Numbered from the stretch's first letter, positions 1 through 20,075 are shown. The stretch: DNA of 64,000 nt from Phormidesmis sp. (GCA_965248535.1 CBDFJR010000005.1:160001-224000), one strand, 5' to 3'. The notes: generated from the letters alone by a model not told the origin. Translations and numbers: made by a program.

Positions 1-667
1 CGTTTTTTCTAAAGCCTTTCAAGCCTGCCTGCATATCTCGATAGCCGAGATTTAAAATTTTTCGAGACAGAATGTTAAACACTTTGCCTGCAATTTTGCG
101 GCTGAACTTGAGATCGCTGCTGTTGCCTGGGGAAAGGCTGCGAGACCCGATCGCCACATCAGACTGCTGCAAGGCGGCAACAAGCCGCTCTAAATGATCT
201 AGCGAGTAGGCGAGATCACTATCGAGATAGCAAACAAACTCTGCATCTGCATGATCAACGCCGCGCTTGATGGCATAGCCTTTGCCTGCGCGAGGGTGAT
301 AGGAAACGAGTTGAATTTGATGAGTTTTAGCCGCGTGAATGCTTGCGGTGATGATGGATTTTGTGCGATCGCTAGACCCATCATTCACAAAAATAAACGT
401 AAATTGAGGATGGCGACAGGCATATTCAAAAACTGCATTAAAGGTTTTTTGAATGCAAGCCTGCTCATTGTAGACGGGCAAAACGACACACACATCGCCC
501 GTTTTAGTGAGCGTAGCCGGATTGTCATAAGCGCGATGTCTTGAGGCGCAGTCGGGAGATTCATCTTGCATCGGTCTAGAACCTTGAGATCTGGAACTCT
601 GCCGAGTCCCCTCTTGCCGATGCAGGAATTGAACCCAGACATTGCGAGGGTTCCACGTTTTTTTCAT
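1..667 (-). CDS. Glycosyltransferase family 2 (Dol-P-Man synthase-like), runs off window start
   Basis: Not in the ORF track because there is no stop inside the window. Manual translation gives VCVVLPVYNE...FIFVNDGSSD...GKGYAIKRG...YLDSDL...IGSR...DMQAGLKGF. Start codon uncertain (ATG 667 chosen). Confidence 0.85.
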   Translation of the reverse strand, partial: MKKTWNPRNVWVQFLHRQEGTRQSSRSQGSRPMQDESPDCASRHRAYDNPATLTKTGDVCVVLPVYNEQACIQKTFNAVFEYACRHPQFTFIFVNDGSSDRTKSIITASIHAAKTHQIQLVSYHPRAGKGYAIKRGVDHADAEFVCYLDSDLAYSLDHLERLVAALQQSDVAIGSRSLSPGNSSDLKFSRKIAGKVFNILSRKILNLGYRDMQAGLKGFRKN

Positions 668-746
668 TGCGATCGCGTCCTCATCGATATGCCTTGACAC
701 TCCTGACGACTCAAACGAGCCTGAAAATAAGAATACATGATCCATC

Positions 747-2360
747 CTACATTCCGGCTTTCAGGGTTTGCCAGGCAGCCAGCGCGCTAGGGTTTGACGA
801 GACCCCTCGCTGCATCAACACTACGCCGTCTTGAACATCAAGCACTCCATAGGTGCCGTCTGCCACAATTTTTTCTAGCGTGGGAAGCGTTGATCGTAAG
901 TCACTTCGACTATCGGCAAATGCCGTTTGATATTCTTGCATCTGCCATAAATCTGCAACCGCATAGTCTACAGCGATCGTCTGGTCACGATCGTCCTTGA
1001 TTTGAAGTCCCGGTAGCCGAATGATCACCCGCCGACTCGACAAGTGAGGAATTAAATAAGTCGTTGCAGAAACGCTGGCATCGGCAGGAATTTGTCGAAT
1101 CACTTGATTCACTTGATCAGCATGGCTCCACTGGCGCGTCAGCGGCACAAACACCCACGGGCGAATCGAGTCAGGAATCATAAACGACAGCGCCCGATTG
1201 GGATTGTTTGTCACGGTGATGGCGATCGAGAGCACCAAACAAAGACTCCAGAAGCGGCGAAACCGGGGCGTAAATCGATCGGGATGGCACGACCACCACA
1301 GCACCGCCCCATAAAACACGCCAGGCACGATCGACAGGGCATAGCGCAGATTCAGCGACAAAGCAGAAAATCCTGATTGCAAAAACAGCATGATGAGTGG
1401 AAAGCCCGCGATCGTCCAAGCAGACGGCGACAAAGCAGGAATAAACGCCAGCGAGAGCCACTGTCCGGCGAGATAGCTGAGGCGACGATCGAGGGGCAAA
1501 AACAGGCTCGACAGCAGCGCGATCGGGTGAGTCAAAATGCCCCCCAAAACCTGCAACGTGCTGGGATTTTCAGTGGTGACAAATTGCTTAAATCGGTGGG
1601 CTAGATAGAGCCGCGAGTTGTCAGGAGAAATCTGCGGCATGATCGCATTCGTGACGATCGCCACATAGCTAAAGCTGATCAAACACACCGCTAGCCCAAC
1701 CCAAGGGTGACGGCGACTCAGCAGCAGATAGACTCCGACCCCAAACAGCAAAATCCCTGCGTCTTCTCGAATGCCTAACACGAGCAAAGCACACAGCCAA
1801 AACCAGATCCAGCGCTGTTTTTCTAACGCTAACAGCAACGCAAACGCCAATAGCGGAATCTGACACTGCTCATAAAAATTGGCCACGGTCGGAGAAATGA
1901 CCGCGATCGCGGCATAATAACTGCCCATGATCCACAGCGATAGATGCGGCTGAAGATAGTGTCGAGCCAAGGCGTAGAGCAAAAGTCCTGCCAGGGTGAT
2001 TAACCCAACCTGCAACACGATCAGCGTCACCGGGTGAGGAGCTATTGCATAGAAGGGCAGCCACAGTAGAAAATCTAAAACAAAATGCTGACCTAAATGC
2101 AAAAAATGCACCGTTGGAATCACGCCATCTTCAAGAGACACGACCGAATTTGCAGAGGTTAGAGAACTCTGGAACCAATGCCCGTGCAAATTGTTCCAAA
2201 AAATCTGATTAAACAGTCCGTGATCATAAGACGAATAGAAAACGAAGTAGCGGTGCAGCGAAATCAGCAACACGCTGGTAAAAAAAATGGCTGCAAGCAA
2301 CCCCGATCGCTTCCAACCCAGTTGATCGGTTGCCGGAATCCAAGATTTAAGAAAAGTCAT
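747..2360 (-). CDS. DUF2079-like multi-pass membrane protein (putative GT-C fold glycosyltransferase)
   Basis: 537 aa, many TM segments; YDHGLFNQIFWN, LGQHF and REDAG motifs; adjacent to a GT2 gene. Confidence 0.7.
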   Translation of the reverse strand: MTFLKSWIPATDQLGWKRSGLLAAIFFTSVLLISLHRYFVFYSSYDHGLFNQIFWNNLHGHWFQSSLTSANSVVSLEDGVIPTVHFLHLGQHFVLDFLLWLPFYAIAPHPVTLIVLQVGLITLAGLLLYALARHYLQPHLSLWIMGSYYAAIAVISPTVANFYEQCQIPLLAFALLLALEKQRWIWFWLCALLVLGIREDAGILLFGVGVYLLLSRRHPWVGLAVCLISFSYVAIVTNAIMPQISPDNSRLYLAHRFKQFVTTENPSTLQVLGGILTHPIALLSSLFLPLDRRLSYLAGQWLSLAFIPALSPSAWTIAGFPLIMLFLQSGFSALSLNLRYALSIVPGVFYGAVLWWSCHPDRFTPRFRRFWSLCLVLSIAITVTNNPNRALSFMIPDSIRPWVFVPLTRQWSHADQVNQVIRQIPADASVSATTYLIPHLSSRRVIIRLPGLQIKDDRDQTIAVDYAVADLWQMQEYQTAFADSRSDLRSTLPTLEKIVADGTYGVLDVQDGVVLMQRGVSSNPSALAAWQTLKAGM

Positions 2361-2390
2361 TCAACACAAGCTTGAGGATATGGGCGATCG

Positions 2391-3899
2391 TCAACGAGCG
2401 ACGGCGGGTTTTTGAGTCGCCTTAGGCTTGGGTGACTGTTGAGGAGCAGGCACCGCCGGAACCGGAAGCGGTTTTATAGTGGTAGGCACCGCCGTCGAAG
2501 TCGGAGCGGGCACACTCGCCGGGGGCTGGCTTTTCGCCCAAAATGCTGCGCTGCCCGTGTCATAAAACCCAGCCACACACGCGATCATCATCGTCGCTAA
2601 AGTGCCCACAAAGAGCGCCTTCCACCCCAGTTCTGAAATGTCTTTGCGACGAGACGGAATCAGCGCGATCGTGCCTCCCACAAAAATCCCCACCGAGGCC
2701 AGGTGAGCAAACCCAGACAGCGCATAGCTGATGATCAAAACCGCCCGATCGCTGAGAGGGTGAACCGGACGAGCGGCAGCAGCAGCCAAAGCCTGATAGG
2801 GCGGAATCGCCGTTTCTAGCAATCTGCGCCCAATAATCACCGACGATTCCCACAACTCATTCCACTCTAGAGACACGCCCGTCAAAAACGTAAACGGCAG
2901 GAACAATGCGCCCTCAATATTCGCCAGAGTGACAATGCCAAAAAACTGTCCAATCACCCCCGGAATGCCCGCCAAGCCTGCAAAAATTTGATTGACGAGG
3001 GACACCAAACCCAAGATGAGAATCAGCACGGCGGCGATCGCCACCGACATTTTCACCCCGTCTAAGGCACCCACGATCGCCGCATCTAGAGGACTCACTC
3101 GCTCGATCGGTTCGCCACCGACCGTCTCTCTAGACAACCCTTCATCGTTTTCATCTCGGTCTAACTCAACTGGAATGCCCCCCGCCGTTAGGGGAACCTC
3201 GGTTTCGGGCACCAAAATCTTAGACAACACAAAACAAGCCGGAATCGCAATGATCGACGCAGAAACCAAGTGTCCTAAAATGTTGGGAAACACCGGACGT
3301 AAAAAGCTGACATAAATCGCCAGCGTTGATGAAGCCGCCGTGCCAAAACAGCAGGCCAAAATCGCACAGAGTTCGCTGCGGGTCATCTTCGCCAAAAAGG
3401 GCTTGACCACGATCGCCGCTTCAATGCCGACAAAAATATTCGCCGCGCCGCTCAACGCCTCAGCCCCACTCAACCGCATCGTAGTGTAAAACGCTTTCGC
3501 AAACAGATTGGTGACGACCTGAATCACGCCAATGTTATAGAGCAACGCCATTAAACCAGAGAAAAAAACCACCGTCGGCAAAGCTCGAAAGGCAAAAATA
3601 TAGCCGAGATTAATATCAGCAGGTCGAGTCGGCAACGGGACAATATTTTTGCCAAACACAAAACTCGCACCCGTATCTGCGGCCAAAAACACGCCATCTA
3701 GCAGGTTACTAAAGACTTGCAGCGCCTCTCTTGTGAAGGGCAACCAAAACACTAGCGCCCCCAGCACCAGTTGCATCAGAATTCCCATGATCACGACGCG
3801 CCATGGAAAGACTCTAGGGCTGCGGTTTTCTGAAAACAGCCAGGCGATCGCACACAAGCCAAAAATGCCTAAAAATGAGATGAGATTGAGTAGACTCAT
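2391..3899 (-). CDS. nupC: Concentrative nucleoside transporter (CNT/NupC family)
   Basis: FAFRALPTVVFFS, AANIFVGIE and SYALSGFAH motifs; Pro-rich C-terminal tail. Confidence 0.9.
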   Translation of the reverse strand: MSLLNLISFLGIFGLCAIAWLFSENRSPRVFPWRVVIMGILMQLVLGALVFWLPFTREALQVFSNLLDGVFLAADTGASFVFGKNIVPLPTRPADINLGYIFAFRALPTVVFFSGLMALLYNIGVIQVVTNLFAKAFYTTMRLSGAEALSGAANIFVGIEAAIVVKPFLAKMTRSELCAILACCFGTAASSTLAIYVSFLRPVFPNILGHLVSASIIAIPACFVLSKILVPETEVPLTAGGIPVELDRDENDEGLSRETVGGEPIERVSPLDAAIVGALDGVKMSVAIAAVLILILGLVSLVNQIFAGLAGIPGVIGQFFGIVTLANIEGALFLPFTFLTGVSLEWNELWESSVIIGRRLLETAIPPYQALAAAAARPVHPLSDRAVLIISYALSGFAHLASVGIFVGGTIALIPSRRKDISELGWKALFVGTLATMMIACVAGFYDTGSAAFWAKSQPPASVPAPTSTAVPTTIKPLPVPAVPAPQQSPKPKATQKPAVAR

Positions 3900-4092
3900 G
3901 GAACCGAATCCTTGAACGAGGGCGAAACGTTCTTCAGGACTACTCTCAAGGTAGATGAATGAGCGTCTCTAAGACGATACCTAAAAAAGGCTCGATCGGC
4001 GCACCTAATTCTCACGATCGCGATCGCCCAAAATTGGTAAGCCGAGACTTGAAACGGTCATAATAAGCAGAGTCGCCCTCATTCGTTGATTT

Positions 4093-4377
4093 ATGGATGC
4101 TTTTAAGCCAACCGCGCCGACCTGGACAGAACTCGCCGTTCACGCTCATGAGTTTCACTGTCCTGCTTGCCATAAATCTTGCATTGAAGCAGACCAGGTT
4201 TGGGTAAATCGACGATCGCCCGTTTTTTCAGATGACTATCGCAAAAAATGGCAAGAGTTTTATCAGTGCCAGTGTGGTCAGGTTTGGTGGGCTTGGAGTA
4301 ACGATCGTCCGCCGTCAGAGTTGCCTGAGCGCGATCGGCCAGTCAGAGATGTTTTTAACCCGTTTGACGATCTGTGA
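4093..4377 (+). CDS. Small hypothetical protein with possible Zn ribbon
   Basis: 94 aa, CPAC and CQCG Cys pairs, Trp-rich. Confidence 0.7.
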   Translation: MDAFKPTAPTWTELAVHAHEFHCPACHKSCIEADQVWVNRRSPVFSDDYRKKWQEFYQCQCGQVWWAWSNDRPPSELPERDRPVRDVFNPFDDL

Positions 4378-4470
4378 GAACGAATGTGGAGTGCTAGTTC
4401 AAACAGCCGACCAGATGCTTAAGAAGCATTTAGAAAAAAGTTAGGCGAGTCTACATTCCACGATCGATTT

Positions 4471-5469
4471 TCACCACAAGGATTTTCGACATATGGAATT
4501 CGGAAAATTTTCGACAAATCTTCTATGGGAAGTAACCGAAGGACTATACGTAGTCGGATCTTTACCAACCTCAATTAAAATAGTTCCTCCACAGCATTTT
4601 TTACTCATAAGTCCCTTGGCGGGTAAACCGCTGAGATGAACAATATTGCCATCTGGCAAATTTACAGCACATTTCTCTGATAGCTGTGTGCATAAAATAT
4701 GAGCCTTCGGCGTGGCTAATAAAACTCCCTCTACAATCTCATCATCTGGATTTTTATGAAGCTTTCTGTCAATTGAGAAAATGACTAACTTGGGCCGCAC
4801 AAGACTGCATAATTGTTGAGCAAATGCTTTGCTGTTTACACGAAAACCTGGTTTACCACCATGATGGGGAAAAACTAAAATATCAGCTTGTAGGTCTTCA
4901 GATTCCTTGAGCATATTGTTTAGCCCAGTTTGGTCTAAATCTCCTGCTAGAATAGCGACCTTACGAGTGTTGTAAACTAGAGAAACGACGGCTGACATAG
5001 AATTAGCTCGTAGAGTTTTACCCGCCAAGTCTTTTCCACCTACACCTGCTAAGGCAAGTTCTGGAACTGGAGCGAGTACTTCAACGATCACTTGTCCAAC
5101 ATTAAGTTCGCCCGTTGTTGATGTTGTCAATTCTGCCTTAACTTTGACACCAGAACGGCGACGTGCATCTCCCAATGCACTGAGTACATCTTTCCAGACT
5201 TCAGTGTCTCTGAGCCAATCGGAATTGAGGTGGATATTATGAATTTTGATATCTCGATTCAGGAGTAGCTGAGGAATTCCAGCAATGTGATCTTGGTCAG
5301 CGTGAGAAATCAAAACATGGGAAATTTCTGTGATCCCAAGATGATGCAATGTTTCTGGTAATACAGCACCGGGAGGACAGTCAATCAGCACCGTGCCTTC
5401 TGTATCTCTCAACAATGCACAATTGCCATGTCCAACATCTAAAATGATTAGCTCAGGAAATTCCATCAA
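4471..5469 (-). CDS. ComEC/Rec2-like metallo-beta-lactamase-fold hydrolase (putative nuclease)
   Basis: LDVGHGNC, SHADQDH (HxDxDH), NSMS, LAGD and PHHG motifs; no TM competence domain. Confidence 0.85.
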   Translation of the reverse strand: MMEFPELIILDVGHGNCALLRDTEGTVLIDCPPGAVLPETLHHLGITEISHVLISHADQDHIAGIPQLLLNRDIKIHNIHLNSDWLRDTEVWKDVLSALGDARRRSGVKVKAELTTSTTGELNVGQVIVEVLAPVPELALAGVGGKDLAGKTLRANSMSAVVSLVYNTRKVAILAGDLDQTGLNNMLKESEDLQADILVFPHHGGKPGFRVNSKAFAQQLCSLVRPKLVIFSIDRKLHKNPDDEIVEGVLLATPKAHILCTQLSEKCAVNLPDGNIVHLSGLPAKGLMSKKCCGGTILIEVGKDPTTYSPSVTSHRRFVENFPNSICRKSLW

Positions 5470-6187
5470 TCTCTTCCGGTGTAGGTGCTACTTCAAAATC
5501 AGTGAAATATAAATCTTCAGGATTCTCAGCACCGCTATTGACATTAGCAATGAGGCGAGTACCGATTTCTGGCTCAAAGTTAAAAATCCATTCACGGATC
5601 AAGGATAAAGGTAACGGCACAGGAGTCTCAGGCTTCCAACTTGGAATGATTACATCTACAACGTCCTCCCTGTAGTTTGCATCAAAATCAATAATCCTTA
5701 CTATGTTTCTGTAAGGTTTTCTGTCACTTGAAAATGTCCCACCAAACTCAGATAAGCAAGTTTCTAATCCTGCTTTTATGGTGGATTTATTTAAATTACT
5801 CTTGCTCAAAAGCACAGGTATTTTGTGCCTAAGTTTTCTGATGGGTACATCTTTATCCATCTCGTAAAACTGAGTATTTAGTATCGCTGGTATTTTCCGA
5901 TCGTATAGAGTTGCTACCAAGTCAGAACCATCAAAATTAGCGAATCCAGATTTTCTTAGGCGCTGATCACACAAAACTCCGTATGTATCTTCAGAAATCT
6001 GCGATATTAAGTCATCAATATCTGTGAAAGAACCTTCAACAATCAAAACCGGTTCGTAACCTGCCTCTTCAACATCCCAAAACGCTGCGTTAGCAAAATC
6101 TTTTTCATCATCAATGATGAAAACTTTAGACTTCTCACGTGGTTGTTCACTTGAAAGATCTTCAGCAAACTTGCTTATTGCAACCAT
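5453..6187 (-). CDS. Response-regulator receiver domain plus uncharacterised C-terminal domain
   Basis: FIIDDE, VLCDQRL (putative phospho-Asp), ILNT and LSK; beta-rich C-terminus without a recognisable HTH. Confidence 0.7.
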   Translation of the reverse strand: MVAISKFAEDLSSEQPREKSKVFIIDDEKDFANAAFWDVEEAGYEPVLIVEGSFTDIDDLISQISEDTYGVLCDQRLRKSGFANFDGSDLVATLYDRKIPAILNTQFYEMDKDVPIRKLRHKIPVLLSKSNLNKSTIKAGLETCLSEFGGTFSSDRKPYRNIVRIIDFDANYREDVVDVIIPSWKPETPVPLPLSLIREWIFNFEPEIGTRLIANVNSGAENPEDLYFTDFEVAPTPEEIDGIS

Positions 6188-8241
6188 TACAAAACTCCAG
6201 TTAGTGGTAATTTGACCATGAATTCTGCACCGCCTAGTTCACCGTTTGCTTTCGCCCATATTTCACCGCCTAAATCAGTGACCGAATCTTTAACGATCGT
6301 CAACCCCAAACCTGTACCTCCTGATGTGGTTGTTCGACCAGGCAGCCAAATCTCGTCTAGAGCCAAGCTTTTAATCCCAAGACCACTATCCAGAAATCGA
6401 AGCTCAAGATAGGTTGTCGTCAACACGGTATTAACTACAATTTGACGTTTTTCACAGGGTGCATCTTTGTCGTTGAAGGCATTAATTGCATTAGTCATGA
6501 GATTAACAAGGATGGCTTCTAAGAGGGAAATGCTGCCACGTATCGATGGTGCGCCATCAGCTAACTCTTTCTTAACGTCTACTTTTGCTTCTTCTAAAAA
6601 TGGTTGGAATAGCTCGATCACTCCATCAATTACATTGTGAACATCAACAGTACTCGATCGTCGTTTTGTGCGTTTTAGTAGATGTAGAGGAAACTTAGCA
6701 AAACTCTTTAATGAGTTCGCAGCCCTATACAGCATCTCTACAGGCTCACCTAGAGTTCTGACATACTGACCCGCTAATAGTTTTTGTCCTTGTGTTGCAA
6801 TTCGTTTAGCAGCTTTCTCAACTAAAGTGACTGGTTTACCTGACTCATGGGCAAATAGCGCGGCGGTTGTACCCGCTGTTGCCAAACTACGGTAGAGCAA
6901 TACGTCTTCCCGTAATGACTGAGTTTCACGCTCCTTAACTCTTTCGTAGTTCTGGATCAACTGAAGTACTTGTGTGCGAGATGTTTGAGGAATCTCTAAT
7001 GCTGCGATCGTTTCCTCAACTTTAGTTTTAGCCTCTACTACAGCATGGTTGATGTCTCGCTTGCCTTGATCTCGTTTTTTCTCAGACTCCTTCAATCTCA
7101 CATCAGCCATCCACTTAAAAGCATCGATCGCAAATTGTCTAAGTTCAGAAAACGCCTCATTTTCAATAAATCCTAGTCGATCTGTCTTTTGAATTAAGAC
7201 ATCATCTGGGTCAACGACAACCACACGACCAATTACCGTGTTAGTTGAAGGACGCTCTTCGGCTGCTTTTGCCCTTTCCAGGTTAATATTCAACCAATCG
7301 TTACCTGAGTCTCCATAGGGTTTCACTCGTAGCCCTCGATGATAGAAATGCACCCCTCCTACAATCGAGAGCCAATCTCTAATCTCTCCAATAGATGCTG
7401 TTCTCTCTCTTCGAGAAAAGGTTTGGGAACTCAGCCCAAAAATCCACACTTCGAGGTTTGCTGCTACTGTTTGATAGGGTCTTTGGGCAGAGTGTTGAAG
7501 ATCACTACGGAACAAGACATCCCCCTTCCAATCTGTAAGCCTTGCTTCAGCTTTACCATGAGCATCTAGAGAGGCGCTGAGTCGGTATTCAGTATCCTCA
7601 AAATAAGCTTCTTGCACCCGCTTTTCCAGTTCAGCGAACCCTGGAGCAATCAGTTTGGGACGGAAGCCAGTTTCACTATCAAACGGGTCTGCTAGTAATA
7701 AAAGTTCCCTGGCTAACCGTTGAACTTCCCGTTTACCCAGTTTAAATCTTAAATTTTGAATAATAGTATCAGTGCCTTGGGATTGTTGTGTTTCATCCTC
7801 TTCGACAGCGAGAGCAACATCTTCAACCACTTTTGCCTGAGCAAAGTCATTCCAGTCGATGGACAGAGAATATTCAATGCCAGAGTTGTCAGCAGATCGA
7901 GTTTTCAAGGTAACGTACGAACCTTGTCGAAGAGCCGCCAGTCTCCCTAAGCCCTTATCCCCCACAGGTAACCGCCCTAATTGAGTGGGAAGACGAGCCG
8001 CTTTTTTAGAGCGCCCAATGACAAGCCACCCCTCAGCGATCGCGTTTAAGTCCATGCCAATGCCATTATCTGATACGACAAGCGAACCCCCAGTTGTTTC
8101 AGAATTGATTATTTGAACTGTACATTCTGTGGCATCTGCGTCGTAAGAATTCTTTACCAGTTCCATAATGCCTTGGTCAGGATTAGGGATGAGTTCCTCA
8201 CCCAATCTACTTAGGATGTCTGGCGAGAATTTGAAGTGCAT
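6187..8241 (-). CDS. MORC/MutL-type GHKL ATPase fused to a C-terminal histidine kinase
   Basis: N-terminal ELVKNSYDA, DNGIGM, GDKGLGRLA; C-terminal H-box FAHE, N-box NLMTNA, G1 DSGLGI, G2 GTGLGL; no TM segments. Confidence 0.88.
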   Translation of the reverse strand: MHFKFSPDILSRLGEELIPNPDQGIMELVKNSYDADATECTVQIINSETTGGSLVVSDNGIGMDLNAIAEGWLVIGRSKKAARLPTQLGRLPVGDKGLGRLAALRQGSYVTLKTRSADNSGIEYSLSIDWNDFAQAKVVEDVALAVEEDETQQSQGTDTIIQNLRFKLGKREVQRLARELLLLADPFDSETGFRPKLIAPGFAELEKRVQEAYFEDTEYRLSASLDAHGKAEARLTDWKGDVLFRSDLQHSAQRPYQTVAANLEVWIFGLSSQTFSRRERTASIGEIRDWLSIVGGVHFYHRGLRVKPYGDSGNDWLNINLERAKAAEERPSTNTVIGRVVVVDPDDVLIQKTDRLGFIENEAFSELRQFAIDAFKWMADVRLKESEKKRDQGKRDINHAVVEAKTKVEETIAALEIPQTSRTQVLQLIQNYERVKERETQSLREDVLLYRSLATAGTTAALFAHESGKPVTLVEKAAKRIATQGQKLLAGQYVRTLGEPVEMLYRAANSLKSFAKFPLHLLKRTKRRSSTVDVHNVIDGVIELFQPFLEEAKVDVKKELADGAPSIRGSISLLEAILVNLMTNAINAFNDKDAPCEKRQIVVNTVLTTTYLELRFLDSGLGIKSLALDEIWLPGRTTTSGGTGLGLTIVKDSVTDLGGEIWAKANGELGGAEFMVKLPLTGVL

Positions 8242-8523
8242 TGCTATTTTTTGTGCCAGTGAGATTTTATCGTTGTCCTCATCATATCAATCTCCCAAAA
8301 ATGCGTTCTGATGGTGGGTAAATTTTATTGGGAATGCACCTAGAAGTCGTCTCTATTTTGCGGAGTCACTGCTCATCCCTCAACAACTACCCCACAGATT
8401 GACTCCTGAATGGCGAAACCGCAGACAACTGGATGCCCTCACCGCAACTTGCCGTTGCACTTTGCACTTAAACGCTCCCCCTGCAATGCGACAATGAACC
8501 CGTCCCTTTGTCGATAAACTCCC

Positions 8524-8751
8524 ATGTGGCGTGTCATCGTTTATTGTTCTGCTGATAGCTGGCGCATTCATGCCACTGCTTTTAAAGCCATTGCTGCAAA
8601 ATATCAGACCAAGCCGCTCTCTAGCAAAAAAATGAAAGACGATGAGCGGCGAATTATGGAATTTCAGGTAGAGGAGGTGGACGATGCTGAGTCTTTTCAA
8701 GATGAGTGCATGACGCTGGAAGGATTTAGCGCTCAGTTTGAGTCGCTGTAA
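8524..8751 (+). CDS. Small hypothetical protein
   Basis: 75-aa ORF with plausible globular composition, upstream of the GATase gene. Confidence 0.6.
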   Translation: MWRVIVYCSADSWRIHATAFKAIAAKYQTKPLSSKKMKDDERRIMEFQVEEVDDAESFQDECMTLEGFSAQFESL

Positions 8752-8856
8752 GGACATTTATATCCAGCGATCGTTCAAACTCAGATAAACCTCCCGGCTG
8801 ATGCAGATTTGGGCAGAAAGTGAGCTTTACTAGGCAAAGGGTTTCTAAAAAGTTTC

Positions 8857-9597
8857 ATGGCAAAGCAGCGATCGGATCTCAAAATTCTCCTCCTACAAAT
8901 CCGCAGTGACGCGATCACGCGATTAGAAGAGCTAGACGAGTTTGGGCGCTATGGTCGCTTAGAACCCCACCAGTTTTCGGTGCTCGATGTCTTTGCCACT
9001 CCTGACTTTAGCCCGACTGAGATTGAAGGCTATGATGCGTTATTTATCGGCGGATCGAGTGATGCCTCGGTGACTCAGCCAGCGTTATATCCCTTTGTCG
9101 AACCTACTAAGAAGCTGATTGTTCACTGTCTTGACAAAAGCATTCCTGTTTTTGCTTCTTGTTTTGGGTTTCAGGCGGCGATCGAGGCCTTAGGTGGGCA
9201 AGTGATCGTCGATAAACCCAATATGGAGATGGGCACCTATCCCATTTGGTTGACTGAAAATGCTGCGAGTGATTTGCTCTTTCATGACGTGCCGAATGGG
9301 TTTCTAGCCATCTCAGGTCACAAAGAACGGGCAATTTCAATGCCCAAAGATGCCATTTTGTTAGCCTATTCCGATCTCTGTCCGTTTCACGCCTTTAAGA
9401 TTGTCGATAAACCATTTTATGGCTTTCAGTTTCACCCCGAAGTCGATGCCAAAGATTTAGTCGCTCGCATCAGTCGCTATCACGAACGATATTTGGACGA
9501 TCGGGCCCTGCTCGATCGCATTCTAGATCAAGCGCAAGACACGCCGATCGCCAATCAACTAATCGAGAAGTTTGTCGATCGCATCCTGCTACAGTAA
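8857..9597 (+). CDS. Class I glutamine amidotransferase (GMP synthase-like domain)
   Basis: FIGGS, nucleophile ASCFGFQ, and FQFHPE. Confidence 0.9.
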   Translation: MAKQRSDLKILLLQIRSDAITRLEELDEFGRYGRLEPHQFSVLDVFATPDFSPTEIEGYDALFIGGSSDASVTQPALYPFVEPTKKLIVHCLDKSIPVFASCFGFQAAIEALGGQVIVDKPNMEMGTYPIWLTENAASDLLFHDVPNGFLAISGHKERAISMPKDAILLAYSDLCPFHAFKIVDKPFYGFQFHPEVDAKDLVARISRYHERYLDDRALLDRILDQAQDTPIANQLIEKFVDRILLQ

Positions 9598-10776
9598 GTC
9601 CAAAATTTCTTGGGCGGCCCGATCGCACACTCCCACTTCTCCCACGGCTCGACGCATTTCTTGATAGTCTGCCAGCATTTTTTGACGGCGATCAGGCTGA
9701 AGCAGGGCGATCGCTTCTTCGACAATGTTTTCTACGGTGGCTTCGTCTTGCAGAAATTCTGGCACGATCGGCTTCATTTCGACCAAGTTAGGCGGCGACA
9801 TAAAGGGAATCGACACCCTGAGAATCTTTTGAGCAATCCAGGCGGTGACGCGATTGACGCGATAAAGCACCACTTGCGGCACGTCTAGTAAGGCCATTTC
9901 AAGATTTACCGTGCCCGATTTGGTGATGGCTAGATCTGCGGCCGCGATCGCTTGCAGGGTTGTCTGCCCTTGATTGCTGTCTAACAATGTCGCCCGCAGT
10001 CCATATTCCTCAATCGCTTGCTCGATCGCCCAGCGATATTTTTCTAGCGCTAGCGGAATCCAAAAATGAGCTTTGGGAAACGTTTCTTGAATTTGCTGCG
10101 CCGCCTCAAAGATCACAGGCAGCAGATACTTCAACTCTTGTTGACGAGACGCAGGCAACAGCACGATCGCCGTTTCGTCAGGGGGAATGCCCAGCGCCGA
10201 TCGCGCATCTTCTCGACTCGGAGCCGCCTGCACCCGATCGACTAAGGGATGCCCCACCCAAGCCACGTTTCCGCCCTTGCGTTTGAAATAGTTAGCCTCT
10301 TCTTGAAAGATCGCCAAAATTTTGCGAGTGGCTCCCACAATGCGATCGGTGTTGTAAGAACTCGCCGACCACACCCACTCTTGAGGCGCAATAAAATAGA
10401 CCACAGGCACTTGAGGCAAATGCTTGGGCAAATAGCTGCAAAACGCCACATTGGGAGTCATGTAGTCAATCAACACCACCACATCAGGTGGATGGGTTTT
10501 GAGATATTGCTTGGCTTGCTGCTGCACCTTGAGAGTGGGCAAGATATAGGGCAAGGATTCCAGCAGCCCGATCGAGCCGATGGCGCTGGTGTGTCCGAGC
10601 AGTTTGGCTCCGGCTTCTTCCATGCGATCGCCGCCCAAGGCCAAAATTTCTAACACCATGCCCAGCTTTTCGGCGCGGCGCTGCAAAGCTTGAATCAGCA
10701 AAGCCCCCTGAAGATCGCCGGAGACTTCGCCTGTGCTGATGAAAACGCGAACGGGTTTTAAAGAGTCGGACTTCAT
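9589..10776 (-). CDS. lpxB: Lipid-A-disaccharide synthase
   Basis: STGEVSGDLQG, VGHPLVD, LLPASR and KSGTVNLE motifs; lpx operon context. Confidence 0.97.
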   Translation of the reverse strand: MKSDSLKPVRVFISTGEVSGDLQGALLIQALQRRAEKLGMVLEILALGGDRMEEAGAKLLGHTSAIGSIGLLESLPYILPTLKVQQQAKQYLKTHPPDVVVLIDYMTPNVAFCSYLPKHLPQVPVVYFIAPQEWVWSASSYNTDRIVGATRKILAIFQEEANYFKRKGGNVAWVGHPLVDRVQAAPSREDARSALGIPPDETAIVLLPASRQQELKYLLPVIFEAAQQIQETFPKAHFWIPLALEKYRWAIEQAIEEYGLRATLLDSNQGQTTLQAIAAADLAITKSGTVNLEMALLDVPQVVLYRVNRVTAWIAQKILRVSIPFMSPPNLVEMKPIVPEFLQDEATVENIVEEAIALLQPDRRQKMLADYQEMRRAVGEVGVCDRAAQEILDLL

Positions 10777-11594
10777 CCTTCATCCCTCACACGCTTTCCG
10801 GGCGTTAGCCCTCGTCTGCCGGGCAAGAGAGATTGCCGAATAAATCGCTGCAAGTGCTGCAAATGGACGTTTTCGGGCAGTAATTCTAGCTGCTCGATCG
10901 CGTCATTTAGCGTCAACCCCGATCGATAGATCAATCGAAACGCTTTTTTGAGCAACTGCATGGTTTGTCCGTCGTGCTCATCGGCTAGGCCCGATCGCTG
11001 TAAGCCAATTAAGTTGAGCGATCGCACCCGTGAAGGGTTGCCCTCCACCGTCATATAGGGCGGAACGTCTCGATCGATGCGAGCCATGCCGCCGACCATG
11101 GCGTGTCGCCCAATGTGCACAAATTGATGAACGCCCAGCACGCCGCTCAGTCGCGCTCGTGACTCAATGTGGACGTGACCCGCTAACGCCACCGCATTGG
11201 AAATGATCACCTGATCTTCGATCGAGCAGTTATGCCCGACGTGGACGTTTGCCATCAGCATATTGCCATTGCCGATCGTCGTGACTTCGCCCGCAAACGT
11301 GGCCCGATGAATGGTGACAAACTCGCGAATCTGGTTGTCGTCGCCAATCTTGACCAGACTCAGCGCCCCATTATATTTCAAGTCTTGCGGCTCTAGCCCA
11401 ATCACCGCACCCGGAAAGATGTGATTGCGATCGCCGATCTCAGTCTGGCCTTCTAGCACCACATGATGACCGACCAGACTTCCGGCTCCCACTGTCACCT
11501 TTTCCCCAATCACCGCATAAGCGCCCACCGTCACCGTCGGGTGAAGTTGAGCACCAGGATGAATAACTGCCGTTGGATGAATCAGGGTTGCCAT
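10773..11594 (-). CDS. lpxA: UDP-N-acetylglucosamine acyltransferase
   Basis: IHPTAVI hexapeptide repeats, PQDLKY, IREFVTIHRAT. Confidence 0.97.
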   Translation of the reverse strand: MATLIHPTAVIHPGAQLHPTVTVGAYAVIGEKVTVGAGSLVGHHVVLEGQTEIGDRNHIFPGAVIGLEPQDLKYNGALSLVKIGDDNQIREFVTIHRATFAGEVTTIGNGNMLMANVHVGHNCSIEDQVIISNAVALAGHVHIESRARLSGVLGVHQFVHIGRHAMVGGMARIDRDVPPYMTVEGNPSRVRSLNLIGLQRSGLADEHDGQTMQLLKKAFRLIYRSGLTLNDAIEQLELLPENVHLQHLQRFIRQSLLPGRRGLTPGKRVRDEG

Positions 11595-11597
11595 AAA

Positions 11598-11724
11598 AGT
11601 TTTGAGGTTTGAGTTCTGAGTTTTAGGGGGTTAAATTGCAGGGTTTACGACACGAACAGCGATCGAGAGAAGTCGATACACCAGTGATTAGCAGTGACTC
11701 AACTCAAAATTCAAAGCTCAAAAC
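11598..11724. repeat. Short heptamer-type tandem repeats in inverted arrangement
   Basis: TTTGAGG-TTTGAGT-TCTGAGT-TTTAG at left and CTCAACT-CAAAATT-CAAAGCT-CAAAAC at right of the fabZ-lpxA spacer. Confidence 0.55.
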
Positions 11725-11730
11725 CCACGC

Positions 11731-12255
11731 TTAACTGACTAACGCAAACATTAAATCACCTTCGCAAGCCAATTGTCCGTCTACTTCGGCACGACCGCGC
11801 ATCTTCCCAAAACGACGAGCTTTAACTGACAGCAGTTCCACCGTTATGACTAGCTGATCGCCAGGCACCACGGGGCGACGAAACCGCACGCCATCAATGC
11901 CCGCAAACATAAACAGACCACCCTGCACGTCTGCCATCTGGGTCAGCACCACGCCACCCACCTGGGCCATGGCTTCAATAATCAGCACCCCCGGCATGAT
12001 TGGTTTGCCTGGAAAGTGCCCTTGAAAATGTGGCTCATTAAACGAGACATTCTTGATCCCGATCGCCATCTTGGCGGGCACGTAGTCAATGATGCGATCG
12101 ACCAGCGCAAACGGGTAGCGGTGAGGCAACAGAGCGTGAATTTCTTCAACTGTGAACACGGTTTTTTGAGGAGCGGGTTCAGAAGCCTGTTCGGTGGGCA
12201 GATCAACGTGGAGCGCAGCCGCATTTTCTGAATTGGTATCAATCAGGGTTGACAT
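11731..12255 (-). CDS. fabZ: 3-hydroxyacyl-ACP dehydratase
   Basis: [11 protein letters not shown] and [22 protein letters not shown]. Confidence 0.97.
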
Positions 12256-13145
12256 GGGTTGGGTGGTGAATATAGGGCGAGGGAAATTTTTTGTGCAAGC
12301 TGAGTGTGCAGACGGTGACTTGCCTTGTAAGCAAGAAAATGGGCGATCGGAATAACTCCCAGCAAACTCAAGTCCCCTACTAAGTCTAAAAGCTTATGGC
12401 GCACTGGCTCATTGGAAAATCTGAGGGGAGGGTTTAGCCAGCCTTCAGGGCCACACACCAAAGCGTTTTCTAACGACCCTCCTTTGATCAGCCCGCTAGC
12501 ACGAAGCTGATCGATTTGATGAGCTAACCCAAAGGTGCGGGCCGGGGCAAGCTCGGCCGCAAAGGAATCACCACTCCCAGGGGCCCAACTGTGCCACTGT
12601 TGCCCGATCGCCGCTAGCTCAAAGTCAATGCCATAGCTAAACCGCAGCGCCAGAGCCGGGATCGCCGCCACAAACGCATCGCCTTCATAGATCCAAATCG
12701 GCTCTGCAAGGGAGGGAGTGACGCGATCGACCGCTTGAGAAACGAGACCGACTTCCGCGATCGCGCTCACCCATTCCTGGGCAGAACCGTCTAATAAAGG
12801 CACTTCGGCCCCGTCAATCTCAATGCGGGCGTTGTCAACCCCCAGTCCCGTCAGCGCTGCCAGCAAATGCTCAACCGTGCGAACCTTGGCATCGCCCTGG
12901 ATCAACTCCGTCGAGAGCATCGTGGGACTGACCGCCTCGATTTGGGCAGAGATGATTGGCTCACCCGGCAAATCAACTCGCACAAAATAGCGCCCCTCTC
13001 CAGGGTTCGCCGGACAAATTTGCACCTGCGTTAACGTTCCAGAGTGCAGACCAATGCCCGATCGGGTCACCGTCTGCGCCAGAGTGTGCTGAGAAGACAA
13101 ATTCAAGCTGGTTTCTGCCCCTGATTGAGTCGTGACCGTTGTCAT
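12243..13145 (-). CDS. lpxC: UDP-3-O-acyl-GlcNAc deacetylase
   Basis: [31 protein letters not shown]. Confidence 0.97.
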
Positions 13146-15475
13146 TAAAATCGCTCCCCAAACCCAAAGCGAATGTTGTTGCCGCCACGATCGTTCAGAC
13201 CAAAATCGATCCGAATCGGGCCGAGCGGAGATTGCACCCTCACGCCAATCCCATAGCCAAAGCCACTTCCCGGCTTGCCGCGCACTCCGGCTGGGTCACC
13301 CGGCACATTCTTTCCACTGCCTAAATCGCTGGCAGCATCGACAAACAACGCCCCAGAGATAATCGAGAATACGGGAAACCGATATTCTGCGGTGGCTTGC
13401 AGATAGCTGCGACCGCTGCCCACATCGCCTTCGTCATAGCCCCGCACCGAGTTGGTGCCACCGAGGGGAAACGCCTCATAGGGCGGTAGATCACCCAACA
13501 CAGTGCCACCTTGAAGGTTAAAGGCCAAGGCTTGCGCGCAACCGCCTGTCGGGGGCTTTTCACCAATTTTCAAGACTTTATTATCTCGACAGCCCGGCGT
13601 GAGACGAGTCAACCGCACCGGAACATAAAAGCTATAGTTTCCGCGCAGGCGATTAAAGAGAATGCTGCCACTGCCCAACGGAACCGATTGCTCAGTGCTA
13701 AAGCTGAGAACCGAGCCGCTGGTGGGGGTCAGAAAATTGTTGCGGCGATCGCGCACAAACCCCAGTCTCCCCGTGATCAAATCATCTTTGCCACTAGAGT
13801 CAAAACTCAACAGGTTGCCCAAACTGTCTCTCGGACTCAGCTTGCCATCGGCATCTCGAATCGAAACCCGTTGATATTGGAATCCGAGAGAAGCCGTCCA
13901 TTCTGCCCGCTTAAAGGGATTTCGCTCTAAAGGACGGTTAAAGCTGATGCCGCCTCCCGTTCTCAAAACACGAGGACGATCGCCGTTGGGTAACTTAATT
14001 TCTGGGTCGCCCCCATCAAAAACGAGTGAAATCGTCTTGCGTCTAAACAGGTTAACCGTGTAGGACGTGCGGAACGGGTCGCCCCCAATCCACGGGTCAG
14101 TAAAGCTCAGGTCAAAGAGTTGATCGCGCTGACCAATCTGCACTTCTGCATTCAGCTTTTGGTCATTGCCGCCCACATTTTGCTGCTGATAGCTGACGCT
14201 GCCAAACAGACCACTGGCAGAGCTAAAGCCCCCAGCCAGACCAACGTTGCCCGTGTTCTTTTCGGTGACGTTGGCGACCACAATCACTTTACGAGGGTCT
14301 TGACCCGGACTCAGCGACAGCTTGATGTCATCAAAAATGCCTAAGCCAAAAGCCCGTTGCAGATCTCGCTCGGCTGTCGCCCGGTTAAAGACATCGCCCG
14401 GTTTTAGCTCAAACTCACGGGTGACGATAAAATCTCGCGTCCGGCCTCGAATCGGATTGCCCTTGGCATCTTTTTCTTCGCCTTGTTTATTGACAAACCG
14501 GACTTGCAGCCCCTCGACCACTCCTTCTGCCACTTCTAGCGTCACGGAGCCATCAGGAGCAACCTTGGGCACGTTGACTACCTGGGCCAAAACATAGCCA
14601 TTGTCTTGATACCACTTGGTCAGAGCTTGAATGCCTGTCTGAAGCTGGCGCAGGTTGAGCGTGGTGCCATATTGCGGGGTAAAAATATCGCTGACCACTT
14701 TGGCGGGCACGACACGAGCACCCTCTAGCTGCACAGACTTTAAGACGGGGTTGGGCTGCACTTCAAACGTGACTCGCACCCCAAGCGGTGTATCGGCTGG
14801 CGTTGCCTTGACGTTTTGAAAGAAGCCAGTCGCAAAGATGGCATTGATGTCTTCTTGCAGTTGCGATCGGGTGGTCGTCCGTCCGGGTTGGGTGCGAATG
14901 ACTCGATAGACTTCAGCTTGCAGATCAGCTTCTGCACCGACTACAAGCACCTCGCCGACTAGCACTCTAGGCTCTGGTGCCGCGTCGGGGGCTGGGCTGG
15001 GAGTCGTTGAAGGGGTTGGAGTTGAAGGTTGAGGAGTCGGAGCCGGAACCGTGGGAATAGTCAAGGTCGGTGAGGTTGGAGACGGAGGATTAAGCTGAAT
15101 TGGGTTAGGCTGCTGCTCGTCAACTGGGCTGCCTTGAGTTTGGGCGATCTCAACGGCGGCAGTCACCAATTTTGACCGAAATGGTTTTAGGGGCTGGGCT
15201 GAGATTGTGTCAGGAACGGAAACCGCAGCCACCTTCACCGTCTCGACCACAACATCTTGGCTCGATCGCTGCGTCTGAGCAGTCACCTTTTCTGACGGTT
15301 GACTCGGTTTAATGCCGGGGTCAGTTCCTATGACCTGGAGAGGGGTCACCTGTGATTTTTGGGAGCCTTCAGGGGGTTGGGCTTTTGCAGAACTCGACCA
15401 GCCAACGGTGGCGACAGCCGCAAAGGCTGCCATTAAAACAGGGGATAATCGCATTTTGTTCACGTTACTTGGCAC
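13145..15475 (-). CDS. bamA: Omp85/BamA outer-membrane assembly protein
   Basis: Signal peptide, Pro-rich linker, POTRA region, VRGY motif, C-terminal GERF; start may be 15454. Confidence 0.93.
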
Positions 15476-15626
15476 GTCCTCACACCAGAGTCTGCTCAGA
15501 GCAGATTCAACATCACAATATCAAGAAGCGGTTCCAATCCTAGCAGGCTGTGAAATTTTACCGCATTGTTGGGGGCTACTCTGCGGCGATCGAGCCAGTT
15601 ACTGCAAAATCATCTGAGGTGATTTG

Positions 15627-16355
15627 CTAAACGGCTTGGACTAAAACCCGCGCTAGCACTTGCTGATAGGCTTCTTCGACGCTGCCTAGATCGCGACGAA
15701 AACGGTCTTTATCCATAACGCGGCGATCGGGGTCAGTTTCGGTTTGGTTCCACAAGCGGCAAGTGTCAGGGCTGATCTCGTCGGCTAAGAGAAGCTGGTC
15801 TTTTGAGTCGATGCCAAACTCAAGCTTGAAGTCTACCAGGGTGATTTGACACTGGTTAAAGAAGGCGATGAGTAGGTCATTGATCCGCAGGGCCATTCTT
15901 CTTAATTGATCCACCTGATCATCGGCAGCCAGATCAAGAAGCCGAAGCCGATCGAGGGTTAGCAAAGGGTCACCCAATTGATCGTTTTTATAATAAAACT
16001 CCACGAGCGGTTGACTGAGAATTGTTCCGAGCTTCAGACCTGTTTGTTGACAGAGACTACCCGCTGCAATGTTCCTGACGACAACTTCTAAAGGCAAAAT
16101 TTTGACTGATTTGACCCGCATTTCATTGGGCGCAGGGCAGTCAATGAAATGGGTTGACACTCCGTTAGTTTCTAGCAATTTAAAAAGGTGAGCAGACATG
16201 GCGCAGTTGATTTCTCCTTTGCCAACGATGCTGCCTCGCTTTTGCGCGTTAAAGGCGGTGGCATCGTCTTTGAAGTGAGTTAATAAAATCTGTGGATCGT
16301 CTGTGGTGTAGAGGATCTTAGCTTTGCCTTCGTAGAGTTTTTGTCCGATCGACAT
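15627..16355 (-). CDS. purC: SAICAR synthase
   Basis: LYEGKAK, FKDDATAFNA, LVDFKLEFG, LADEISPDTCR. Confidence 0.97.
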   Translation of the reverse strand: MSIGQKLYEGKAKILYTTDDPQILLTHFKDDATAFNAQKRGSIVGKGEINCAMSAHLFKLLETNGVSTHFIDCPAPNEMRVKSVKILPLEVVVRNIAAGSLCQQTGLKLGTILSQPLVEFYYKNDQLGDPLLTLDRLRLLDLAADDQVDQLRRMALRINDLLIAFFNQCQITLVDFKLEFGIDSKDQLLLADEISPDTCRLWNQTETDPDRRVMDKDRFRRDLGSVEEAYQQVLARVLVQAV

Positions 16356-16435
16356 GGCCGTGATCGCTCCCAAGCGCCAAATTTGAGTTTAACTATTGTA
16401 CCGTTCAACTCAGCGCTATTCGCAGTCTGTGATCG

Positions 16436-17707: not shown

Positions 17708-17848
17708 AAAATTTGCACCTCTGGGCGATCGTCACTCTCCCCAATTTATCCGATCGGGACGGCGCGAAGAGTACCCAAAGGTGCAATCTATCAAGAAGCT
17801 AGGCCTTTGAAAATGATGAAATGAGCAAAGCCCCTTAACTAACTTGCT

Positions 17849-18268
17849 TTAGTGGCTAGGATAGCTGTGCTGCTCGATCAGCGGCTCTAACCAGGGCTGA
17901 AATTCATCTCGACGGAAAATCTGAGCGCGGCGACGATAGTCAAATCTGACTAAGCTAGGCAACCCATGCTTGCGAAGACAGTCTTTGATCCAAGAGGCCA
18001 CTCCTTGACCTGCTTCGGGCAACATCTCGGTTTGAAAAGGGCCATACATCAGCACCAGTTGACTGTTGGTTTGAAGCGGAGCGTCTTGCTCAATCAGCTT
18101 CGTCAGACTGGTTTTGGTGTTTGCAGGGCGACTGCGGGTTGATTCTCCCCATTGATGCGAGGGGGGCACTTCGGCTTTAGAGTCGGGTCGATTGGCTTTG
18201 CGAAGCTCTGAAGGGTTGCTCGCGGATGGGTGGGGGTTTGAGGAACGATGAGAATGTCTGTGGGGCAT
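17849..18268 (-). CDS. Hypothetical protein
   Basis: 139-aa ORF with AAGGAG RBS; disordered N-terminal half. Confidence 0.55.
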   Translation of the reverse strand: MPHRHSHRSSNPHPSASNPSELRKANRPDSKAEVPPSHQWGESTRSRPANTKTSLTKLIEQDAPLQTNSQLVLMYGPFQTEMLPEAGQGVASWIKDCLRKHGLPSLVRFDYRRRAQIFRRDEFQPWLEPLIEQHSYPSH

Positions 18269-18577
18269 ATAACTCCTTACGAGAGAATATAGAGGTAACA
18301 GATTTACCCCTGCTATCTATCGCAGACCTCATCAGGAACCGTCTGACTTATCGGTAAATGCAACCTAAGTCAAGGTGTAAATCTTTATATCTTGATAATA
18401 TTGTCTTTTATAAAAAACCGCAAACATTAGTTTATCTGTAGGTCAGGTTTGTATAGACGATCACAAAAACATGGTACGCGGGCGTGAGCGATCGAGGGTT
18501 TGGTGCAGACACTACAATCTGTTCTGCTAAATCTGATAAGTTAGCTGGAGACTTCCACAATAAGATAACGGTGAATC

Positions 18578-19714: not shown

Positions 19715-19800
19715 TTCAACCCCAAATGCAGGGTGTCACCCCTCTTCCCCGATTGACGATCCCTTGCAACTATAGTCAGGTGACGATTTTCAGGAACTCC

Positions 19801-19835
19801 AGCCCCCAAGATTCTTGCTTTTGGGGGCTTCTTTT
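19801..19835 (+). terminator. Intrinsic terminator after gltA
   Basis: AGCCCCCAA...TTGGGGGCT stem followed by TCTTTT. Confidence 0.7.
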
Positions 19836-20075
19836 ATGGAGGGTAAAATCGGTCACCTCTAATCAGCCTAAATTGCTGCTTGAATTTGAAATCACTATTC
19901 AGTGAAATGAATGCAAACGATTGATTAGTTTGATGACCCGAAAGGCTCAAATTCAAGACCTTGATGCAATTCTGTTCCATCAGGAAAGATATACTGATAG
20001 GCGTTAATGTCGCCCAGGAACTTCATCTTGGGGTGAGTGAGCGGCGAACACAGCAATGATTTGAGTTGGGAAAGC

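Follow-up and report, generated by a model that had tools for sequence, protein, structure and literature searches.

A stretch of 64,000 nucleotides from Phormidesmis sp. (GCA_965248535.1, CBDFJR010000005.1:160001-224000; termed the window, at its full length) carries three overlapping minus-strand genes, A, B and C, whose predicted products are a fusion of a MORC-like ATPase with a histidine kinase, a receiver protein with a beta-rich C-terminal domain (CTD), and a ComEC-type hydrolase of the metallo-beta-lactamase (MBL) fold. From sequence comparison and structure modelling we consider A-B-C to be a phosphorelay-gated nuclease cassette, most likely anti-phage or anti-plasmid, that forms an MBL branch of the Ambrosia class and lacks a methylase of its own; we put the probability of this reading at about 0.58. 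Of particular interest, on the same evidence, are a methylase-less clade maintained by selection, a receiver output domain that seems to dock on the nuclease, and the fusion of that domain to a methylase.

Ambrosia (AbrR-AbrA-AbrB-AbrC-AbrD) is a system of Pseudomonas aeruginosa comprising an XRE regulator, an N6 methylase, a kinase/HSP90-like ATPase, a receiver bearing a domain of the winged helix-turn-helix (wHTH) type and an HNH nuclease (van den Berg et al., bioRxiv 10.1101/2025.09.30.679545, here and below in the portion of the text available). According to that portion, all five genes are needed against P. aeruginosa phages and the D60A derivative of the receiver is inactive; the genes are induced on infection in a receiver-dependent manner; methylation by AbrA fails to protect phage; and the authors, who report the system in Gammaproteobacteria only, favour transcriptional control. 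The initial annotation of the window had presented A-B-C as a candidate defence system of an undescribed kind. That description has to be given up, since Ambrosia has been validated and pairs of a MORC-like kinase and a receiver-like protein associated with restriction-modification (R-M) genes had been predicted computationally in the available part of an earlier survey (Bellieny-Rabelo et al. 2021, PMC8011034).

Gene layout and products of the cassette

The layout and domain content first proposed for the locus hold: three co-oriented open reading frames (ORFs) are present, joined by the overlaps listed in Table 1 and flanked by ordinary genes, and Pfam, NCBIfam and structure models between them identify a MORC-like ATPase/histidine kinase, a receiver and a ComEC-like MBL protein.

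Residues 8-180 of protein A match the N-terminus of BbrUII/HgiDII-family restriction enzymes (NCBIfam, E 1.9e-19), and residues ~430-681 match ordinary sensor histidine kinases (NCBIfam). The ATP motifs of the first domain (E27/N31/D34, D58xG60xG62, G94xxG97xG99), the H465-E466 pair and the kinase boxes (N580/N584, D618xG, G642xG644xG646) are all invariant in 22 sequences. In the structure model, H465 sits in long DHp-like helices, and the C-terminal half matches the class-I kinases ZraS, CpxA and HK853 (Foldseek). The first ~460 residues align with the ATPase module of MORC2 (9cdh_B) over 459 columns with E 3.8e-11, at a TM score of only 0.44 and in a model of pLDDT 68.8; they also match Hsp90. 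A sequence profile of A run against the PDB reaches MORC3 (5ix1, E 7.5e-4) over residues 25-155, and the conserved GGVHFYHRGLRV at residues ~294-305 resembles, by eye, the MORC S5 motif GhXhhpXXRhl, one position out of register. Judged by these motifs and matches, A is an intact MORC-like ATPase module joined to an intact histidine kinase. Relatives of its N-terminal module also occur in phage-labelled records: MT838277.1 is a 5.4-kb human-gut contig in which the relative spans 96% of A's N-terminal 430 amino acids at 27% identity, and NC_070907.1 contains a hypothetical protein of Yersinia phage P37 that matches residues 1-129 only.

Protein B has no match in Pfam, NCBIfam or PADLOC. Its model superimposes on CheY, PhoB and VicR receivers at TM scores of ~0.72-0.74 (Foldseek), and on 3jte_A with Z 13.9 and a root-mean-square deviation of 2.9 over 119 aligned residues (VIA); the residues D26-D27, D74, T105 and K122 are conserved in the family. 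This family is large: at E<=1e-3 a profile of B collects 939 clusters (50% identity) whose members are almost all full-length, and standard receiver families scarcely register it: 4 of 38 sampled members match PF00072, below threshold, and none of the 38 matches Response_reg_2. From its residues, B is a receiver carrying all the phospho-acceptor residues together with a family-specific CTD. In the model the CTD is all-beta with one short helix, in the order strand-strand-strand-helix-strand-strand. Pfam finds in it no match to helix-turn-helix (HTH) or other DNA-binding families, whole-model structure searches of B list receiver matches only, and the protein atlas gave no usable match to the CTD. 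B-like proteins of 260-292 amino acids (~34% identity) are found without A or C in Chloroflexia (L041:3982-6762; L042; L063:6000-8965), where their genes adjoin a ResIII/DEAD helicase gene and lie a few genes from an Eco57I-type methylase; these loci may represent another partnership of the receiver-CTD protein.

Residues 150-236 of protein C match the ComEC_Rec2 model TIGR00361 (NCBIfam, E 4.1e-8), and its closest solved structures are ComEC MBL domains (9ic4, E 2.8e-9, and 30bt, E 3.5e-9, followed by 9vcb, 9vcf and 9vc6, to 1.2e-7). D11, H56xD58xD60H61, D177/D179 and H202-H203 are invariant in the 22 sequences, so far as its sequence can tell making C a ComEC-type metallo-hydrolase with a full set of metal ligands. 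In the C-terminal tail, C260, C267, H278, C293, H315 and C327 are likewise invariant and C292 is nearly so (>=90%), a pattern from which we infer that the tail binds zinc.

Table 1. Features of the A-B-C cassette, in window coordinates.
Feature	Position	Strand	Evidence or remark
Gene A, MORC-like GHKL ATPase + class-I histidine kinase fusion, 684 aa	6187..8241	-	Pfam, NCBIfam, Foldseek
A, N-terminal Bergerat ATP-binding domain, residues 24-149	7795..8172	-	HATPase_c_3 (PF13589), E 1.3e-20
A, H465, histidine of the H-box (FAHESGKP) and predicted site of autophosphorylation	6847..6849	-	conservation and model
A, kinase catalytic (CA) domain, residues 572-681	6199..6528	-	Pfam HATPase_c, E 2.9e-19
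A/B stop/start overlap, TAATG	6185..6189	-	read from sequence; A stop and B start shared
Gene B, receiver + CTD, 244 aa	5453..6187	-	model pLDDT 86
B, CheY-fold receiver, residues ~19-151, with D26-D27, D74 (codon 5966-5968), T105, K122	5735..6133	-	Foldseek, VIA
B, beta-rich CTD, residues ~155-244, predicted MBL-docking module	5456..5725	-	model, complex prediction, fusion
B/C overlap	5453..5469	-	17 nt with TTG start at 5469; 14 nt should the ATG at 5466 be the true start
Gene C, ComEC-type hydrolase of the MBL fold and predicted nuclease effector, 332 aa	4471..5469	-	Pfam Lactamase_B, E 4.1e-12
C, metal-binding motif H56-x-D58-x-D60-H61	5287..5304	-	invariant in 22 sequences
C, Cys/His-rich C-terminal extension: C260, C267, H278, C292, C293, H315, C327	4489..4692	-	conservation, 22 sequences

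Predicted contact between the receiver's C-terminal domain and the hydrolase

Two independent lines, a complex model and a natural gene fusion, suggest direct post-translational control of C through the CTD of B. When C was modelled together with B residues 150-244, the predicted complex reached an ipSAE of 0.87 (runs at 0.89, 0.87 and 0.87), while three controls scored 0.00 at best; at least 83% of contacts are common to the runs, and the partner pLDDT is at least 81. Among solved complexes 116 of 157 reach this ipSAE mark, as do 2 of 215 mismatched pairs, rates that are rough when carried over to the present predictions with their own alignments. The predicted interface occupies residues 59-72 of C, beside the HxDxDH motif, and on B the surroundings of W184 and N217, the CTD positions conserved most strongly in 141 divergent members of the family. 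The model supports binding at the level of a prediction.

The fusion is found in a Chloroflexota genome (G1042; L065:5659-9370), in which an 890-residue N6 methylase ends in B's CTD and is followed by a C-like MBL protein (46% identity); neither a kinase nor a receiver lies within 8 kb of this two-gene variant. The methylase belongs to Pfam N6_Mtase/MmeI_Mtase and has no homology to M, the methylase of the cassette's non-cyanobacterial relatives described below. Its CTD shares 43-49% identity with Nostoc-type B CTDs and 33% with that of L001, a locus of the window's clade, and hhalign pairs it with the B profile at a probability of 98.6% (E 8.3e-16). Such fusions form a family of 12 clusters, one named from Methylomirabilota; a word-based search starting from the window's own CTD returned no longer CTD-carrying protein, whereas a search from the L065 fusion did find them.

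Most receiver proteins that carry an output domain are transcription factors, and B might be one as well: phospho-B would induce the nuclease gene, as proposed for Ambrosia, and the B-C contact would be a modelling artefact. The receiver-dependent induction of Ambrosia's genes on infection (bioRxiv 10.1101/2025.09.30.679545) speaks for this, but AbrC has a wHTH, whereas the CTD of B is all-beta with its single short helix and no HTH or other DNA-binding match. Moreover, the overlapping B and C look as if they are translated together, C then being made whenever B is made; the CTD recurs on a methylase ahead of the same MBL, in surroundings that lack a kinase; and the complex score of 0.87 stands against 0.00 for the controls. 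We regard a transcriptional role for B as distinctly unlikely, and prefer direct control of C by the CTD.

Distribution of the cassette and history of the methylase

The three-gene synteny is conserved. Among 43 loci, mostly cyanobacterial and gathered through B alone, 39 carry collinear A-B-C, two are cut off by the edge of the contig ahead of C, and two Chloroflexia loci have B only. In the 33 loci that are intact the A-B gap ranges from -4 to +14 nucleotides, and B and C overlap by 4 to 32 nucleotides in every case. The arrangement is far beyond chance, and from these junctions A, B and C are judged to be translationally coupled and kept as one unit.

Plasmid tblastn and whole-genome searches yielded eight non-cyanobacterial A-B-C loci, on Hymenobacter and Burkholderia plasmids and in three Acidobacteriota and three Chloroflexota, and in all eight a gene for an N6-adenine methylase, M, lies directly upstream of A, often overlapping it. 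The seven M proteins that were aligned show 35-47% mutual identity over their length, with invariant SAM-binding DPxxGxGxLL-like and NPPF motifs and a weak N6_Mtase match (Pfam); by tblastn, the eighth (L060) shares 39-45% identity with them. Identification of M with MAD2, the methyltransferase of MADS, was rejected, the match of ~20 bits against a cut-off of 720 (NCBIfam) reflecting generic methylase similarity; MADS is, in the part of its description available, an eight-gene system with OLD-like modules (PMC13662399). The initial annotation had noted that the island contains no methyltransferase, and the search for M bears this out: neither the window nor any of the cyanobacterial-type loci holds a homologue.

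A tree of A was built from 37 rows (IQ-TREE quick mode, LG+G4, SH-aLRT), with an outgroup of four distant plasmid kinases and without 17 loci that were near-duplicates, truncated or broken. Its 25 methylase-less rows fall into a single clade (support 99) nested in a methylase-bearing grade, and the sister of this clade is a Pyrinomonadaceae locus that still carries M. The tree needs one change of state for M, its root being less certain owing to the long outgroup branches. A single loss of M followed by spread in cyanobacteria is the simplest reading. The missing methylase would, given this nesting, be a derived loss and not part of the basic design; that is another point on which the first interpretation of the locus needs revision, its scheme of sensor, phosphorelay and nuclease remaining the best reading. 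It had taken the absence of a methylase from the island to suggest phospho-gated, possibly abortive immunity; M is present in 8/8 non-cyanobacterial loci.

A cassette that has lost its methylase might be taken for a decaying, inert remnant of a four-gene system, and broken copies do exist. C is disrupted in 5 of 41 cyanobacterial-type loci: by insertion sequences (IS) in L002 and in the Pseudanabaena plasmid locus L044, by a frameshift in L015, by a stop in L035 and by decay in L040. In L002, on a Nodosilinea chromosome, IS elements split A once and C twice; in L044 (8587-10540) C is split by an IS982 transposase gene. Repeated breakage of C also fits a costly nuclease. Against the remnant stand the 33 intact loci, the invariance of every catalytic residue, the intact state of the window's own copy, and the selection acting on the clade: by the method of Nei and Gojobori, applied to 24 sequences of the cyanobacterial clade and 178, 238 and 218 pairs (A, B and C respectively) with dS of 0.05-2, pairwise dN/dS has medians of 0.20 (A), 0.27 (B) and 0.24 (C), values that hold across a clade with dS up to ~2. 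The methylase-less cyanobacterial clade is under purifying selection, and we consider the remnant explanation very improbable.

The cassette might instead still be methylation-aware and behave as a restriction-like system, borrowing as its self mark the activity of an unlinked host methyltransferase such as an orphan methylase. Cyanobacteria methylate GATC and CGATCG sites, and orphan methylases are widely conserved among them; over-representation of these sites in the window outside the island (observed/expected 2.68 for GATC and 17.9 for CGATCG) fits heavy resident methylation, and the retention of a dedicated methylase by all eight non-cyanobacterial loci points the same way. Yet the window's genome (99.76% complete) and two further near-complete carriers among the cyanobacteria gave no match to an M profile that did match both positive controls (4.7e-207 and 4.4e-179); no methylase is conserved beside the cassette in any cyanobacterial-type locus; and in Ambrosia AbrA methylation gave phage no protection (bioRxiv 10.1101/2025.09.30.679545). 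A borrowed methylase is, on balance, unlikely, and we favour a cassette that operates with none of its own.

The cassette appears horizontally mobile and is patchily distributed. It occurs in 7 of 401 cyanobacterial genomes, in 6 of 156 genera, and is absent from three other genera of the window's own family; copies are also borne on plasmids in Pseudanabaena, Hymenobacter and Burkholderia; and its flanking genes differ between all lineages. The A tree cuts across taxonomy, with Microcoleus and Pseudanabaena each in two places and an Obscuribacterales copy inside the cyanobacterial clade, beside a Microcoleus copy.

This pattern bears on another possible role for A-B-C, that of an ordinary cellular two-component pathway, in DNA uptake, repair or nucleotide salvage, that uses a ComEC-like hydrolase and has no part in genetic conflict. 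The window's flanking genes, by Pfam a DUF2079 membrane protein, a nucleoside transporter, a glutamine amidotransferase and LpxB, are of the housekeeping type, the transporter in particular suiting such a role, and ComEC-type MBL domains serve natural transformation, as titles of PDB entries indicate. A cellular pathway is nevertheless hard to square with presence in so few cyanobacterial genomes and in none of the three other genera of the family, with a phylogeny that crosses taxonomy, with plasmid-borne copies and with relatives wired to methylases and HNH nucleases; nor are the transporter and amidotransferase genes adjacent in three related genera examined. We think this role quite improbable beside one in defence.

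The composition of the island offers weak evidence of foreign origin: its GC content is 0.427, against 0.511 in the remainder of the window, and it contains one HIP1 octamer where 3.7 are expected from its length. Of the features that would mark an insertion, no tRNA gene was found in window positions 1-20000 and no direct repeats were found flanking the island ends; promoter and terminator scans gave signals no better than chance.

Some other features of the sequence and its surroundings may be recorded. GGCC is strongly avoided in the island, with 1 site observed for 7.7 expected (ratio 0.13; 0.58 in the rest of the window), and GATC and CGATCG are far less enriched there than in the host background. 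The 615-nucleotide gap upstream of A holds two overlapping small ORFs, at 8524-8751 (+, 75 amino acids) and 8380-8757 (-, 125 amino acids), neither with a family match in Pfam; the 75-residue frame looks, by eye, the more protein-like. AT skew is unusually high (0.22-0.36) at window positions 1001-4000, across the two minus-strand genes for membrane proteins (DUF2079 and the nucleoside transporter), probably a codon effect of hydrophobic proteins. In Nostoc paludosum (L012:1061-10082), the cassette has TIR-pYEATS and integrase genes on one side and Cap17-like/TIR and SMODS nucleotidyltransferase genes on the other, a clear defence island, unlike the context in the window.

Proposed mechanism and relation to known systems

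In the mechanism we propose, the MORC-like module of A would engage DNA or another infection cue, and its ATP-driven dimerisation, a behaviour known for MORC ATPases, would switch the attached kinase. H465 of A would then be phosphorylated and the phosphate passed to D74 of B; the resulting change in receiver conformation would be relayed through the CTD, seated on the MBL protein by its active site, so that the nuclease is released or activated. The nuclease would then cut the invading DNA, or possibly that of the host. Since the CTD is taken to act directly on C, control would be post-translational, unlike the transcriptional control proposed for Ambrosia, and the cyanobacterial cassette would work without a methylase of its own. 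A more specific version is a good deal more tentative, and we hold it to be possible but rather doubtful: that a small, OB-like CTD holds the ComEC-type nuclease at its active site until phosphorylation by the MORC-like kinase releases it, the ATPase serving as a sensor of non-self that is independent of methylation. Were that version true, the methylase would be dispensable and the cassette would be a two-component immune nuclease under post-translational control.

Several points count against the proposal. The likeness to the Abr proteins is at the level of architecture, drawn from their description, and the MBL branch is known from sequences and models while the HNH branch, Ambrosia, is experimentally validated. 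The Ambrosia authors favour transcriptional control, and B might yet act on DNA by way of its CTD; the ipSAE of the C-CTD complex is a measure of model confidence in which the CTD is the modelled part of B. Nuclease activity of C is predicted from its similarity to ComEC, where the match scores 31.8 bits against an NCBIfam cut-off of 190. The matches obtained with PADLOC are generic: the REase_II N-terminus for A, and RTasMBL, LmuA and PDC-M48B for C. The window cassette adjoins housekeeping genes and lies in no defence island; and the occurrence of an integrase, transposase, toxin-antitoxin, TIR/SMODS, AAA_15 or similar gene within three genes of the cassette in 12 of 24 loci, read by eye from Pfam names, is a raw count without background control. 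Finally, loss of M could mean that the cyanobacterial clade acts differently from its four-gene relatives.

The initial annotation recognised no named system in the locus, and none emerged here: PADLOC gives no system-level match, NCBIfam provides no named system, and no description of an MBL form of the kinase-receiver cassette was found in the literature searched. The PADLOC candidate PDC-M48 was discarded, as only C matches one of its models (PDC-M48B, E 6e-8) and A and B match none.

Individual components have familiar counterparts. The H-box and N/G1/G2 boxes of A and the DD, D, T and K residues of B are those of canonical two-component systems. C shares its HxDxDH-type and HHG motif pattern with the C-terminal MBL domain of ComEC/Rec2, from which it differs in standing alone as a soluble protein that lacks the competence membrane domain and has an extra Cys/His-rich tail. 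Like the MORC/paraMORC ATPases, which Iyer, Abhiman and Aravind (2008, PMC2292703) place in R-M operons, A begins with a GHKL domain whose ATP motifs are intact, and the region after it aligns in the model, at the low TM score given above, with the MORC2 ATPase module; its cassette shares with them a sporadic, laterally mobile distribution and methylase and nuclease partners. The match of A to the MORC-specific S5 motif is, by eye, inexact. The available text of PMC2292703 describes no kinase fusion, receiver or MBL partner, the words 'receiver' and 'lactamase' having 0 occurrences there. From classical type II R-M systems the cassette is set apart by the lack of a methyltransferase in the island and of an M-family one in the genome.

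The resemblance is closer to the pairs of HEF_HK (PF19191) and Response_reg_2 (PF19192) proteins, whose kinases have the order HATPase_c_3, HEF_HK, HATPase_c and which are 91.6% linked and enriched near R-M genes, mainly those for C5 methylase, Vsr and HNH_2 (PMC8011034). The cassette likewise combines a soluble HATPase_c_3 + DHp + HATPase_c kinase with a divergent receiver-like gene beside it whose product has no further known domain, is linked to methylases and nucleases, and is related to paraMORC ATPases. PF19191 and PF19192 have no match in A or B at E<=10 and none genome-wide, but no positive control matched either, and these models also miss five more distant plasmid kinase/partner pairs and two of the cassette's own family. 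The available main text of PMC8011034 contains none of the words lactamase, cyanobacteria and phage.

Residues 1-430 of A match kinases on 97 plasmids, and among these more distant relatives the contexts vary: on a Deinococcus plasmid an XRE regulator, an Eco57I-type methylase, the kinase, a 215-residue protein and an HNH nuclease; in Campylobacter, the kinase and a response regulator adjoining dcm; in Rhizobium, the kinase and a partner accompanied by dcm, vsr and an endonuclease of type II; in Hymenobacter, the kinase, two unknown proteins and an N6 methylase. Since these four plasmid contexts differ, nuclease and methylase look exchangeable around a constant kinase-receiver core. The kinase of the Deinococcus locus, which has Ambrosia's exact architecture, aligns with A across 758 columns at 25% identity (E 2.6e-41).

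Detocs, a phage defence system reportedly built on a His-Asp phosphorelay in which the sensor kinase is of TPR type and a buffer receiver accompanies a second receiver that is fused to a PNP-type effector, resembles the cassette in coupling phosphorelay to post-translational control of an effector, as we propose here; it differs in that the cassette's sensor is MORC-like, its receiver single and its effector a separate MBL protein.

With Ambrosia the cassette shares a kinase/HSP90-like ATPase, a receiver and a nuclease in one cluster, and its non-cyanobacterial relatives add the N6 methylase. Of Ambrosia's five component features, the kinase/ATPase is present in the window cassette at the level of architecture and the other four are not: there is no XRE/HipB-like regulator, the ORFs beside A containing no HTH family; there is no N6-adenine methylase gene; the effector is a ComEC-type MBL protein where Ambrosia has a type IV-like HNH nuclease; and the receiver's output is a beta-rich CTD in place of the wHTH of AbrC. 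These differences are what make the cassette informative. The work on Ambrosia left open how the relay controls its enzymes and what the methylase does, and A-B-C amounts to a natural dissection of the same class, with a different nuclease, with a receiver output domain that seemingly binds the nuclease or is fused to a methylase, and with a large clade, kept by selection, that lacks the methylase. Comparison of its three-gene with its four-gene form bears on whether methylation serves self-protection, sensing or neither; the cassette also bears on the MORC-type ATPase as an immune sensor feeding a His-Asp relay, and would enlarge the small set of defence systems described in cyanobacteria.

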